From the sequence record PV593737.1: a stretch of 64,000 nucleotides of DNA; one strand, 5' to 3'. Positions 50,415 to 52,673 of this stretch are shown here, in pieces; positions within the stretch are counted from its first letter, which is position 1, and each line of letters starts with the position of its first letter. A model generated the notes under the pieces. It was not told where the DNA came from. It ran no database searches and saw only the letters and a list, made by a program, of their open reading frames with translations. The position numbers were made by a program, and so were the translations under genes. The stretch comes from Enterobacter phage vB_ECC_MY742.

Positions 50415-50491
50415 TGGAGGCGGGTGATGGACTCGAACCATCGCATATCGGGATATGAACCCGACCTTCTACCAACTGAATGTAACCCGCA
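50415..50491 (-). tRNA. tRNA with CAU anticodon and initiator-like features (unpaired 1:72; three G-C pairs 29-31:39-41)
   Basis: The RNA reads (U)GCGGGU-UA-...-UCGGG-UUCAUAU-CCCGA-UAUGC-GAUGG-UUCGAGU-CCAUC-ACCCGCC-U-CCA. The anticodon stem is identical to that of E. coli tRNA-fMet. Confidence 0.65.
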
Positions 50492-50776
50492 TTTGTCCGG
50501 GTCCAGAGAGTACAAACAAGTAGCTTGATGTAGAACACGCTAAAGATATAATCTTCCGAATATAGAGCTTATCCCGTGGGAACAAACCGCTTCGTCCTCG
50601 GCATTATCTTACAGGACTCAAACTCATCTCTCTGGACTGCCTCGTATTGTTGCGCCCATCTTGCTGTGGCATTAGACCATGAAGCATCACCGAAATCGCC
50701 TGATTACGTTAATGTCTGGGTGCTATCCAGGGAACAGAGCTTGGACGGCTTTCTATATCGTCATATGGATTTCTAT

Positions 50777-50852
50777 TGGGGTGACCTATGGGACTTGAAC
50801 CCATGACTACAAGAATCACAATCTTGAATTCTACCAACTGAATTAAGGCCAC
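50777..50852 (-). tRNA. tRNA-His (GUG)
   Basis: The RNA reads GUGGCCU-UA-AUUC-AGUUGGUA-GAAU-U-CAAGA-UUGUGAU-UCUUG-UAGUC-AUGGG-UUCAAGU-CCCAU-AGGUCAC-C-CCA. All stems pair. Confidence 0.8.
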
Positions 50853-50883
50853 ATCAATGTCCACTCGTAAATGAACATTAATT

Positions 50884-50959
50884 TGGCTAGGGTATCAGGA
50901 CTCGAACCTGAGCATCGTGGAATCAAAATCCACTGCCTTACCAACTTGGCTATACCCTA
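50884..50959 (-). tRNA. tRNA-Gln (UUG)
   Basis: The RNA reads UAGGGUA-UA-GCC-AAGUUGGUAA-GGC-...-GUGGA-UUUUGAU-UCCAC-GAUGC-UCAGG-UUCGAGU-CCUGA-UACCCUA-G-CCA. Confidence 0.8.
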
Positions 50960-50966
50960 TTTAATT

Positions 50967-51042
50967 TGGCTGACCTACAGAGACTCGAACTCTGATAAAC
51001 GGATTAACAGTCCGCCGTAATAACCGATTATACGATAGGTCA
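50967..51042 (-). tRNA. tRNA-Asn (GUU)
   Basis: The RNA reads UGACCUA-...-GCGGA-CUGUUAA-UCCGU-UUAUC-CAGAG-UUCGAGU-CUCUG-UAGGUCA-G-CCA. Confidence 0.75.
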
Positions 51043-51048
51043 TCAAAT

Positions 51049-51125
51049 TGGTGGGTCGCCGAAGATTCGAACTTCGTACACCCGGATTAAAAGTCCGGTG
51101 CTCTAACCAAGTGAGCTAGCAACCC
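51049..51125 (-). tRNA. tRNA-Lys (UUU)
   Basis: The RNA reads GGGUUGC-UA-GCUC-ACUUGGUUA-GAGC-A-CCGGA-CUUUUAA-UCCGG-GUGUA-CGAAG-UUCGAAU-CUUCG-GCGACCC-A-CCA. Confidence 0.85.
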
Positions 51126-51130
51126 TGAAT

Positions 51131-51218
51131 TGGTGGGGAGTGATGGAGTCGAACCACCCGAGTCGCAATGACAACAGATTTACAGTCTGCACCGCTACCT
51201 CTACGGAATTAACTCCCC
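51131..51218 (-). tRNA. tRNA-Tyr (GUA), class II with long variable arm
   Basis: The RNA reads GGGGAGU-...-GCAGA-CUGUAAA-UCUGU-(variable arm UGUCAUUGCGACUC)-GGUGG-UUCGACU-CCAUC-ACUCCCC-A-CCA. Confidence 0.75.
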
Positions 51219-51231
51219 GTGATACTTTTAT

Positions 51232-51468
51232 TTATTCAGTATATCTCTTGAACTGTAAAGCAAAATCTTCATCAACCTTAGTCAAGAAGTGTCCTGCCTT
51301 AAATCGTTTAGAGCTACCTTCAACTTCTACACCGTATCCATTTTTGCCAAGGACTCGACCAACTCGCATTTCGCCAGGGTCACCCATTGAATTACAACGA
51401 ACACCGTATAGAACAAAATCATTTTCGAATACCGGAGTTTGTTTCCGATCTTTAATTAATTCTATCAT
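51232..51468 (-). CDS. Hypothetical 78-aa protein embedded in the tRNA cluster
   Basis: ORF with protein-like composition. Confidence 0.45.
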   Translation of the reverse strand: MIELIKDRKQTPVFENDFVLYGVRCNSMGDPGEMRVGRVLGKNGYGVEVEGSSKRFKAGHFLTKVDEDFALQFKRYTE

Positions 51469-51485
51469 ATTAACCTTAAAGCATA

Positions 51486-51710
51486 TTACATATCAACTTG
51501 ACAGAAACCTTCAAATTTGAAATACTCATCAAAATGAAGAGCAGGTTCGCGCTGGCAATTTTCTTCGACCAGAATTAGATTCTTACGAATAAGAGGGTCT
51601 AAGAATGCAGTGTTCAAACAACTATCATTCCAATATGATAGAACTCTTGTTGATTCGGTATCAACAAGATAAAATACTTCCATCTCTGGGTGTTTGCACA
51701 TGTTAATCAT
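51486..51710 (-). CDS. Hypothetical 74-aa Cys-rich protein
   Basis: ORF. Confidence 0.4.
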   Translation of the reverse strand: MINMCKHPEMEVFYLVDTESTRVLSYWNDSCLNTAFLDPLIRKNLILVEENCQREPALHFDEYFKFEGFCQVDM

Positions 51711-51713
51711 AAT

Positions 51714-52178
51714 CTACTCGCCTTTAAGCATGTTACGTTTTAAGTTTTCACGAACTCGATAAAGATTTGAACAGAATTCCTGTTCAGTCAGGACAGTTTC
51801 GTTCTTTTTGGACTTACCCATTGAATGGGTTAATGTAGAGTTCTGCGTAGCCAGGAGTGCTCTCTTGAACCCTTCATTACGACCTAATTGATTATATGCC
51901 CGTTCGATAAGAAGCGTATAAGCGTCACTCTGGCGTTGCATAGGCACACCTTTCCAATACAGAGTTTGTGTACGCCACCAATTCTTTTTCTTACCTTTAA
52001 ACTTAGCTGCTTTACCAACTAAGGTGCAAACATGTTCTTGCATCTCGACTGAACTAAATTTCAGTGATTGCAAAAATCCTTCCATCGAAGCACATTCTAC
52101 ACCATCAATTGTAAAAGCATGAGGTGCAAAGTTACTTAATGCAGATGAGGGATAACCTGAGCCTGAACCGATATCCAT
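51714..52178 (-). CDS. NADAR (YbiA-like) domain protein, 154 aa
   Basis: DIGSGSGYPSSALSNFAPHAFTIDGVECASMEGFLQSLKF parallels the YbiA/NADAR signature (...LSNFYP...IDG...YPT.EHYFQA.KF). Confidence 0.6.
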   Translation of the reverse strand: MDIGSGSGYPSSALSNFAPHAFTIDGVECASMEGFLQSLKFSSVEMQEHVCTLVGKAAKFKGKKKNWWRTQTLYWKGVPMQRQSDAYTLLIERAYNQLGRNEGFKRALLATQNSTLTHSMGKSKKNETVLTEQEFCSNLYRVRENLKRNMLKGE

Positions 52179-52402
52179 TAATCACCCCATTGCATAATCA
52201 TGGCAATATCATCAATATCTGTTACGATGTTTTCAATTTCATCGATAAAATTAGACAGATAAGGAACAACATTAGGAGTATAAAGCCAATTAGCACATTG
52301 AATGCACTGATTGCCTACTTTATCCTGAAAGATTACAGCTTCGGAATGGCTTCCGCCTTTCCATTGTATTAAGGCAAATCCTAATGGATATTTCTGATGC
52401 AT
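52178..52402 (-). CDS. Hypothetical 74-aa protein
   Basis: The start was reassigned to the ATG at 52402 (GAGGAAAA RBS). The track start at 52456 overlaps tRNA-Arg. Confidence 0.45.
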   Translation of the reverse strand: MHQKYPLGFALIQWKGGSHSEAVIFQDKVGNQCIQCANWLYTPNVVPYLSNFIDEIENIVTDIDDIAMIMQWGD

Positions 52403-52421
52403 TATATTTTCCTCAGTTATC

Positions 52422-52498
52422 TGGTGTCCCCTGATGGATTCGAACCATCGACCCACAGCTTAGAAGGCTGTTGCTCTATCCAGCTGAGCTAAGAGGAC
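52422..52498 (-). tRNA. tRNA-Arg (UCU)
   Basis: The RNA reads GUCCUCU-UA-GCUC-AGCUGGAUA-GAGC-A-ACAGC-CUUCUAA-GCUGU-GGGUC-GAUGG-UUCGAAU-CCAUC-AGGGGAC-A-CCA. T4 uses the same anticodon. Confidence 0.85.
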
Positions 52499-52502
52499 GA
52501 AA

Positions 52503-52579
52503 TGGTGGCCCCATCCGGACTTGAACCGGAAACCTACCAGTTATGAGCCGGGCGCTCTAACCAATTGAGCTATAGGGCC
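52503..52579 (-). tRNA. tRNA with CAU anticodon, probably Ile2 (lysidine type) by its acceptor and D-arm resemblance to tRNA-Ile2; alternatively elongator Met
   Basis: The RNA reads GGCCCUA-UA-GCUC-AAUUGGUUA-GAGC-G-CCCGG-CUCAUAA-CUGGU-AGGUU-UCCGG-UUCAAGU-CCGGA-UGGGGCC-A-CCA. Confidence 0.7.
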
Positions 52580-52588
52580 TGAATAATT

Positions 52589-52673
52589 TGGTGCACCGAG
52601 TGGGACTTGAACCCACAATCCGAAAGGCGCGGCATTTTAAGTGATATGTGTATACCAATTCCACCATCGGTGC
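52589..52673 (-). tRNA. tRNA-Leu (UAA)-like with long variable arm but a mismatched anticodon stem, so possibly a pseudo-tRNA
   Basis: The acceptor (GCACCGA/UCGGUGC), D-arm and T-arm (GUGGG-UUCAAGU-CCCAC) are perfect. The loop CUUAAAA is as in T4 tRNA-Leu. The flanking anticodon stem UAUCA/UGCCG has two mismatches. Confidence 0.45.

Follow-up and report, generated by a model that had tools for sequence, protein, structure and literature searches.

Why should a T4-like phage encode its own set of transfer RNAs (tRNAs), and one that includes an apparent initiator? The question is raised by Enterobacter phage vB_ECC_MY742 (record PV593737.1), of which a stretch of 64,000 nucleotides (nt), here called the window, was analyzed. 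An earlier note on this DNA had described a nine-tRNA cluster at positions 50415–52673 with a repertoire unlike that of T4, an initiator-like tRNA and a tRNA-Leu with a damaged anticodon stem. Taken as a whole, we consider it probable that this region is the tRNA and stable-RNA gene island of a Kanagawavirus (Straboviridae, Tevenvirinae; a T4-like Enterobacter phage), in which seven tRNAs would supply codons favored by the phage, one gene would belong to a conserved initiator-type lineage and the Leu gene would be a recombinant of two alleles. A tRNA cluster as such is routine for T4-like phages, and the locus is of an ordinary, already annotated kind. Its most novel content consists of two structured RNAs, here named X and Y, and of departures from expected identity elements: U73 and U38 in the initiator-like tRNA, a tRNA-His lacking G-1 and an insert in tRNA-Tyr.

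Nine tRNA genes at the T4-type position

The nine-tRNA call was confirmed, far beyond chance. ARAGORN returned eight tRNAs, all on the minus strand and exactly at the coordinates given in the earlier note, and the Rfam model RF00005 recovered the same eight plus Tyr-GUA at 51134–51218. RF00005 scores were 61–69 bits for six genes, 44.2 for the initiator-like tRNA at 50415 (hereafter the 50415 tRNA), 43.5 for Leu and 39.1 for Tyr, with a gathering score of 29 and E-values of 1e-4 to 6e-13. The PGAP/tRNAscan-SE annotation of the closely related phage Entb_45 contains the same nine tRNAs, the second CAU gene being called Ile. A discriminator followed by CCA is encoded in 9/9 genes. They form two blocks on the minus strand, the first Leu-Ile2-Arg and the second, beyond four open reading frames (ORFs), running Tyr-Lys-Asn-Gln-His and on to the 50415 tRNA. 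Spacers inside each tRNA block measure 4–31 nt.

Gene order follows that of the T4 tRNA region, in which ipI, trna.4, trna.3 and trna.2 lie upstream, tRNAs, rnaD and rnaC follow, and the e.x genes come last. ORFs resembling trna.2 and trna.3 stand beside the island, as expected of a T4-type position, and the gene names trna.2, trna.3, trna.4, ipI and e.7 used in phage PEi20 agree with these surroundings when the region maps are compared. Megablast of the ~3-kilobase region matched Enterobacter phage vB_EclM_CIP9 (CIP9) with 97.7% identity and 100% query coverage; other Kanagawavirus members match too.

An initiator-type tRNA-Met lineage

Two features had led to the proposal that the 50415 tRNA is an initiator, an unpaired 1:72 position and three consecutive G:C pairs in the anticodon stem, and both are present in the sequence. 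In the register set by the encoded U73-CCA, the acceptor stem reads UGCGGGU/ACCCGCC and U1 stands opposite C72. The anticodon stem UCGGG/CCCGA (GGG:CCC) is identical to that of the E. coli metZ tRNA-fMet, and G2:C71, C3:G70 and G4:C69 are paired as in E. coli. For formylation in E. coli, the features that count are A73 and the acceptor-stem pairs G2:C71 and C3:G70, together with G4:C69. Overall identity was 67% to E. coli tRNA-fMet and 68% to T5 tRNA-fMet, compared with 54% to the E. coli elongator tRNA-Met. The CAU anticodon carried by the 50415 tRNA is the main determinant for methionyl-tRNA synthetase (PMC9976931).

Homologues were found in 226 GenBank phage records, mostly from Klebsiella, Enterobacter, Citrobacter and Serratia phages, where they are labelled tRNA-Met or left unannotated. 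Family statistics were drawn from eight distinct variants that were aligned. A Watson-Crick pair at 1:72 is absent throughout, U1.C72 being found in the window and in 8/8 variants. U73 with CCA is likewise invariant, as are the pairs 2:71, 3:70 and 4:69. In the anticodon stem, 30:40 and 31:39 are G:C in every variant, and 29:41 is G:C in seven and A:U in one (PM2). Compensatory change was seen at eight pairs of the family, and 90.5% of alignment cells were paired compared with ≤51% in slid controls. Because of these invariances, compensatory changes and pairing statistics, we judge that the 50415 tRNA is a functional tRNA under selection and that its 1:72 mismatch is a selected feature. The gene is a member of a conserved phage lineage of initiator-type tRNA-Met, and its most likely role is that of an initiator.

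Phage tRNAs of this type are a known kind, because T5 has an annotated tRNA-fMet ('initiator tRNA fMet', AY543070 32428–32505) with a nearly identical acceptor stem (UGCGGGU/ACCCGCU). The 50415 family is a large, so far unrecognised lineage of that kind. A phage-encoded initiator had been called uncommon, which is overstated in view of the 226 records and the T5 annotation. According to one survey, phages generally avoid encoding tRNA-fMet (PMC10264068).

Three departures from the host initiator weigh against an initiator role. The formyltransferase elements are a 1:72 mismatch and a purine-11:pyrimidine-24 pair, R11:Y24 (A11:U24) (PMC9976931), and the second of these is absent from the family, with A.A in the window and C.A in other variants. 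The discriminator is U73, not the A73 of the E. coli initiator, and the anticodon loop UUCAUAU is non-canonical (E. coli CUCAUAA). The 11:24 reading uses the D-arm register backed by covariation at 10:25; an alternative register gives U11:A24, the elongator type. A three-nucleotide connector register for the D arm of the 50415 tRNA proved less supported than the ARAGORN register; its 10:25 pair shows no covariation. The acceptor and anticodon stems are initiator-like, but the molecule is not a textbook example. The loop residues U32 and U38, together with U73, suggest a tRNA tuned to differ from the host molecule.

We regard it as unlikely that the 50415 gene instead encodes an elongator tRNA-Met or some tRNA-like RNA of different function, its 1:72 mismatch being incidental. 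Such a reading can draw on the same three departures, on GenBank annotations of the family that read 'tRNA-Met' only, and on the fact that no elongator tRNA-Met is encoded by the phage. It can also draw on the general Rfam tRNA model, which starts at G 50490 and so yields a paired G1:C72 with a 6-base-pair stem. A different 5' end is what the earlier note had named as capable of undoing its proposal; the Rfam alignment does offer one, but it is judged less likely, for it places the encoded CCA one base too far from the discriminator. Discriminator and CCA fit the ARAGORN register in T5 tRNA-fMet and in all of the cluster's remaining eight tRNAs. Moreover, U1.C72 stays invariant in a family whose variants diverge by up to 22% and whose neighboring pairs co-vary, and both the anticodon stem and overall identity lie on the initiator side.

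A hybrid tRNA-Leu

The tRNA-Leu(UAA) gene does contain the two anticodon-stem mismatches that had been reported, A28.C42 and U29.C41, and Rfam flagged them. With the wobble U27.G43, only a C:G and an A:U Watson-Crick pair are left. The stem of five pairs is not formed in this gene; A73 and the other three arms (acceptor, D and T) show no damage. Intact, co-varying alleles were found in relatives: UAUCA/UGAUA in CIP9, Entb_45 and ZX14, CGGCA/UGCCG in IME523, and GGAGA/UCUCC in Q7622 and an IMG/VR contig (L041). The window combines the 5' strand UAUCA of the CIP9/Entb_45 type with the 3' strand UGCCG of the IME523 type. In minimum free energy folds, the anticodon hairpin was present in the three intact alleles and was lost only in the window allele.

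The surrounding sequence changes type in the same place. Upstream of the Leu anticodon the window equals CIP9. IME523-like sequence begins with the 3' stem strand, takes in Ile2 and Arg and extends to about 52403, beyond which the CIP9 type returns. Sliding identity over 52400–52499 was 98% to IME523 and 58% to CIP9, with flanks that are 98–100% CIP9-like. One edge of this patch is placed within the shared loop sequence CUUAAAAUG, the Leu anticodon loop (~52633–52641), because the flank type switches there from CIP9 to IME523. Two further changes in the loop of the variable arm (UUUC vs UUAU) are private to the window and occur in no other sequence. No identical hybrid allele was found in the phage collection (best 94.1%), in IMG/VR or in JGI metagenome contigs. 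T4-like phages recombine freely.

The best reading of these data is that the Leu gene would be a recent recombinant of two co-varying alleles. It is probably impaired or non-functional, in a family that is intact elsewhere. Gradual decay, one of the explanations offered earlier in the form of a decaying pseudogene, was rejected, since the 5' and 3' halves of the stem agree with different intact alleles and so point to a hybrid formed by recombination (or assembly). The second origin, in which two Kanagawavirus strains occurring together were merged into one chimeric assembly or consensus and the mismatches would be an artefact, weighs against recombination and is rather unlikely in our estimation. 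The junction coincides with the switch in parental type, the allele is unique among all sequences searched, and selection would act against a defective tRNA, all of which would fit a chimera. Other clean mosaic patches in the window argue for recombination, such as 51000–51199 (the Lys/Tyr segment), which is 100% Entb_45/IME523-type with only 51–86% identity to CIP9. The two private changes in the variable arm further imply that the donor was not simply a known strain. A third segment, 52100–52199, is of the Q7622 type (98% sliding identity). The Leu gene illustrates how an RNA helix can be disrupted when co-varying alleles recombine, and it cautions against reading mismatches as slow decay.

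Codon supply and tRNA-targeting nucleases

Codon usage of the window ORFs was compared with a sample of 34 E. coli genes (window GC content, 39.6%). Codons read by the supplied tRNAs are enriched, AGA 5.5-fold, AUA 2.65-fold, UAU and AAU 2.2-fold each, UUA 1.8-fold, AAA 1.6-fold and CAA 1.45-fold. Because their codons are enriched, seven of the tRNAs would have a codon-supply role, topping up the host pool for codons that the phage uses 1.4–5.5 times more than E. coli. By analogy to T4, the tRNAs would be made as multi-tRNA precursors, which host RNase P and 3'-processing enzymes would cut. This cutting would release the rnaD-like RNA, X, the rnaC-like RNA and Y as by-products or co-products.

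Four points count against supply as a full account. The comparison takes E. coli, not Enterobacter, as the host. AUG (0.98-fold), CAU (1.35-fold) and CAC (0.5-fold) leave the initiator and His unexplained by codon supply. Codons for which the phage brings no tRNA are enriched as well (CCU 3.1-fold, ACA 2.6-fold, ACU 2.5-fold and UCA 2.2-fold). Finally, one member, tRNA-His, may not be a plain decoder. Its gene has C73 and a GUG anticodon, but at position -1 (50853) the window has T, as do all nine of the phage variants examined, from several genera, compared with G in E. coli hisR; the upstream sequence ATTG(A/C)T is conserved. In bacteria, histidine identity rests on an encoded G-1 opposite C73, which histidyl-tRNA synthetase normally needs (PMC9976931).

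It is possible, though we hold it doubtful, that the island is mainly an anti-defence device, whose tRNAs, being resistant or abundant, would replace host tRNAs destroyed by anticodon nucleases. The nuclease targets considered were tRNA-fMet for VapC, tRNA-Lys for PARIS AriB and PrrC, and tRNA-Tyr for the retron-Eco7 PtuAB. The repertoire is rich in known nuclease targets, namely Lys, Tyr, His, Asn, Arg and initiator Met, and a role in defence would accommodate the two tRNAs that codon use does not explain. Colicin-E5/D-like enzymes cut Tyr, His, Asn, Asp and Arg tRNAs. They are listed as host tRNases in a study that also proposes that phage tRNAs carry changes at nuclease sites, with which U38 of the 50415 tRNA agrees (PMC10264068). 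Enteric VapC cuts tRNA-fMet between A38 and C39 (PMC4105405), and U38, which lies at this site, is invariant in the 50415 family. The earlier note's proposal that such a tRNA could sustain initiation against VapC-like toxins is not contradicted by this exchange of A38 for U38. T5 tRNA-Lys neutralises PARIS, whose AriB cuts in the anticodon stem between positions 40 and 41 (PMC11464382). The anticodon stem of the window Lys departs from E. coli at 27:43, 28:42 and 29:41, the latter two adjoining the AriB site. Phage escape retron-Eco7 with the help of T5-type tRNA-Tyr, and PrrC170 with that of a phage tRNA-Lys (PMC11555353).

The anticodon loops argue otherwise. Seven of the nine (Ile2, Arg, Tyr, Lys, Asn, Gln and His) are those of E. 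coli K-12, and deviations are confined to the initiator-like tRNA (two positions) and Leu (position 32). The whole anticodon arm of Asn is identical and that of Tyr is one base off, even as anticodon stems deviate from E. coli in most of the window tRNAs. The loop-mutation signature of van den Berg et al. (PMC10264068) is thus mostly absent, and when the cluster was compared with E. coli it was found at none but these positions of the initiator-like tRNA and Leu. In T5, resistance to PARIS comes from a change described as a U-A to A-U swap (PMC11464382), inferred to lie at 31:39, where the window Lys equals E. coli. The strongest codon enrichments, AGA and AUA, fit plain supply. We rate codon supply as the probable main driver of the island; anti-defence would come second or be an alternative, with substantial weight, and would be most plausible for the initiator and Lys.

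We think it improbable that the island, instead of supplying codons, protects translation and provides decoys; in such a module the initiator lineage (U1.C72, U73 and U38) would sustain initiation when VapC-type nucleases cut host tRNA-fMet, the Lys, Tyr, His and Asn genes would replace nuclease targets, and the non-chargeable-looking tRNA-His without G-1, Y, and X (fused upstream of the initiator) would act as decoys or sponges for tRNA-targeting defence enzymes. A widespread 'tRNA-Met' that is of the initiator type has been consistently mislabelled, and its departures from the host molecule, including the one at the VapC cut site, are fixed. With this family, the idea that phage tRNAs counter nucleases can be put to a direct test on initiation.

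Structured RNAs of the island

His and the 50415 tRNA are 285 nt apart, and what lies between them is no empty spacer but comprises two RNA genes, a diverged homologue of T4 rnaD and X (coordinates in Table 1). The rnaD-like RNA is identical to T4 rnaD at 81/134 positions (z=5.4 over shuffles) and has in common with it the motifs AAGYCGTC, GTTCCCTG and CACAGCA..GGCGCA. On the far side of the 50415 tRNA lies an rnaC homologue that is 100% identical among Kanagawaviruses. X and the initiator-like tRNA stand between these two RNAs, unlike the arrangement in T4.

X is an unannotated, conserved RNA of about 150 nt. RNAalifold on 15 variants gave a structure of 30 pairs, 13 of them with compensatory changes, and 98.7% of cells were paired compared with ≤49.5% in slid controls. 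A covariance model found exactly one copy per phage (81–163 bits) and no match in the 7-kilobase T4 tRNA region. Blastn located X in 211 phage records from at least six genera, where it is unannotated or lies beneath spurious hypothetical ORFs; it has no match in Rfam. In the window, KP1, CHI14, PM2 and CC31, 4 nt separate the end of X from the initiator-like tRNA; X is also found in phages that lack this tRNA.

Y is a tRNA-shaped RNA of 131 nt. Its acceptor, D and T arms are kept by compensatory changes, a domain of ~75 nt replaces the anticodon arm, and no CCA is encoded. Paired cells amounted to 89.7%, compared with ≤41% in slid controls. Y is 99–100% identical across Kanagawaviruses, even where its flanks diverge, and a covariance model detected diverged full-length homologues in Serratia phage CHI14 (L021 2190–2319), Pectobacterium phage PM2 (L026 3718–3847) and an IMG/VR contig (L031 4008–4137). 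ARAGORN described Y as a tRNA-Ser(GGA) with a 42-nt intron. We rejected this description, because such an intron would sit at a non-canonical position, because CHI14 and PM2 retain the tRNA frame but have a different central domain, and because the anticodon-like loop UUGGUAC is not conserved. A relationship of X or Y to T4 rnaC or rnaD was likewise rejected, as neither blastn nor the covariance models gave matches.

At least six genera of T4-like phages have X and Y in conserved form, and the two are undescribed structured-RNA families, a conclusion that stands much more securely than the decoy role considered above. Both resemble T4 RNAC and RNAD in that they lie in the same island, measure 120–170 nt, abut tRNA genes and have no known role; the tRNA-like frame of Y is a difference. 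The function of RNAC and RNAD is itself unknown (PMC3014915, PMC9697503). With comparative data from over 200 genomes and clear covariation, X and Y offer a handle on a role that has been unknown for ~50 years.

An Rfam scan of 49700–53000 at E≤5 gave no match in the non-coding stretches; the sole non-tRNA matches were weak (Plastid-ycf2, YrlA, tp2 and sR11) and lay mostly over tRNA genes. A promoter and terminator scan was uninformative, with 9 promoter-like sites compared with 7.9 expected. The non-coding leader ahead of the first tRNA may serve as a promoter, in processing or as a further RNA. It has the hairpins GGAGU-UAUG-ACUCC and CCUCAA...UUGAGG, and a 24-nt core of it is identical in more distant, Marfavirus-like phages. 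At the other end, 49940–50130 on the minus strand is a GC-rich non-coding segment of ~190 nt between Y and the next ORF, 83–100% conserved in Kanagawaviruses. Hairpins such as UGGACGGUGCGUCCA occur in it, and a late-promoter-like GATAAATATAG precedes the 208-amino-acid (aa) ORF.

Other genes of the island

Tyr, rather than Leu, proved to be the least canonical tRNA gene of the cluster. ARAGORN missed it, and three extra nucleotides, AUU, separate position 9 from the D stem; across genera this insert is AUU, UUU or GA. In relatives the gene is annotated as Tyr, or as 'pseudo' by some pipelines. Because the insert is kept across genera and the whole gene is 100% identical between Karamvirus and Kanagawavirus, we judge that tRNA-Tyr is conserved, not decaying.

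The second CAU tRNA had been assigned to Ile2, and this is borne out by its homologues, annotated Ile or Ile2 in relatives, and by comparison with E. coli ileX. The two are identical at 59/77 positions and have the same loop, CUCAUAA, as well as C4:G69 and C5:G68; the acceptor stem GGCCC.../...GGGCC and A73 agree with an Ile2-type body. C4:G69 and C5:G68 are TilS-related Ile2 features. At the Ile2 position, ZX14 (L007 3776–3852) and Kosakonia phage 305 (L009 4352–4428) have an odd CAU tRNA with a D loop without GG (GTACTGTCGCGTGAAAGTAC) and the T loop TTAGACT, in which the GGCCC/GGGCC acceptor stem is kept.

Between Arg and Tyr lie four ORFs, three small ones of unknown function and one gp30.3-family gene. 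The tRNAs had been described as interspersed with four small ORFs and a NADAR gene; the ORFs are there, but they number four in total, not five. The supposed NADAR gene matched PF08010 (gp30.3) in Pfam and no other family at E≤10, NADAR (PF08719) included, and a sequence search of the PDB for a NADAR assignment was negative. One relative's annotation mentions a YbiA-like domain. The likeness to E. coli YbiA was weak in hhalign (20% probability, 39 residues) and is limited to the motif SNF..DG..E..Q..KF. CIP9 has one small ORF after tRNA-Arg that is missing from the window.

Table 1. Positions in the window of the island's features, in the order of the minus strand
Feature	Position	Strand	Basis or remark
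Non-coding leader, trna.2-like ORF to first tRNA	52674..52879	-	206 nt, 88–100% identical across Kanagawaviruses
tRNA-Leu(UAA), apparent hybrid allele	52589..52673	-	ARAGORN; Rfam 43.5 bits, mismatches flagged
Apparent IME523-like recombination patch, ~240 base pairs	52403..52640		Sliding identity, informative sites
tRNA-Ile2 type (CAU, presumed lysidine-modified, reads AUA)	52503..52579	-	Rfam 65.7 bits
tRNA-Arg(UCU)	52422..52498	-	Rfam 68.9 bits; loop as in E. coli argU
Small ORF, 74 aa (ATG at 52402)	52178..52402	-	phrog_17978, E=5e-30
gp30.3-family protein, 154 aa	51714..52178	-	PF08010, E=1.3e-56
Small ORF, 74 aa	51486..51710	-	phrog_27825; in CIP9, absent from other relatives examined
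Small ORF, 78 aa	51232..51468	-	phrog_3358
tRNA-Tyr(GUA)	51131..51218	-	Rfam 39.1 bits; missed by ARAGORN
tRNA-Lys(UUU)	51049..51125	-	ARAGORN, Rfam; loop as in E. coli
tRNA-Asn(GUU)	50967..51042	-	ARAGORN, Rfam; anticodon arm identical to E. coli asnT
tRNA-Gln(UUG)	50884..50959	-	ARAGORN, Rfam
tRNA-His(GUG)	50777..50852	-	ARAGORN, Rfam
rnaD homologue (T4 species 2 stable RNA), diverged	50649..50776	-	Directly after a tRNA, as in T4
X, unannotated conserved structured RNA, ~150 nt	50496..50645	-	RNAalifold, covariance model
Initiator-like tRNA (CAU)	50415..50491	-	ARAGORN, Rfam, family alignment and pair counts
rnaC homologue (T4 species 1 stable RNA)	50270..50409	-	87% to T4 rnaC over 137 nt, E=2e-40
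Y, tRNA-shaped RNA, 131 nt	50131..50261	-	ARAGORN only with intron option and lowered threshold

Comparison with known systems

The closest counterparts are the islands of CIP9, Entb_45, IME523, Q7622, ZX14, CC31, CHI14, PM2 and KP1, which are essentially identical in kind. The initiator-like tRNA, Tyr, His and X are common to Kanagawa-, Karam-, Winkler-, Mosuguk-, Jiaoda- and Marfavirus. Compared with these relatives, the window is a new mosaic of their alleles, with a unique hybrid Leu allele. Repertoires vary even inside the genus: PEi20, KLB31 and Kosakonia phage 305 have an Asp or Trp tRNA instead and lack the initiator-like tRNA.

The T4 region occupies the same slot in the same orientation, between ipI/trna.4–trna.2 and the e.x genes. 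T4 encodes eight tRNAs (Arg-UCU, Ile-CAU, Thr, Ser, Pro, Gly, Leu-UAA and Gln-UUG), plus segB, rnaD and rnaC. Arg-UCU, Ile-CAU, Leu-UAA and Gln-UUG are common to both islands, as are the rnaC homologue (87%) and the diverged rnaD homologue. The repertoire is nonetheless unlike that of T4, as had been observed before. The window lacks the Thr, Ser, Pro and Gly tRNAs and segB, and adds the His, Asn, Lys, Tyr and initiator-like tRNAs, the four ORFs with the gp30.3 homologue, and the X and Y RNAs. That all of its tRNAs encode CCA is a further departure from the T4 region.

The initiator-like gene finds its counterparts in T5 and in the host type. T5 tRNA-fMet and the 50415 tRNA have in common a mismatched 1:72, U73, an encoded CCA and the CAU anticodon. 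T5 tRNA-fMet has an A11:U24 pair, the canonical CUCAUAA loop and no GGG:CCC stem, whereas the window gene has GGG:CCC, no 11:24 pair and UUCAUAU. The T5 tRNA region likewise has stable RNAs of unknown function. With the E. coli tRNA-fMet genes (metZ/W/V) the 50415 tRNA shares the UCGGG/CCCGA stem, a 1:72 mismatch and the pairs G2:C71, C3:G70, G4:C69 and G5:C68. The E. coli molecule differs in having C1.A72, A73, A11:U24 and CUCAUAA where the window has U1.C72, U73, A.A and UUCAUAU, and the D and T arms of the two are unrelated in sequence.

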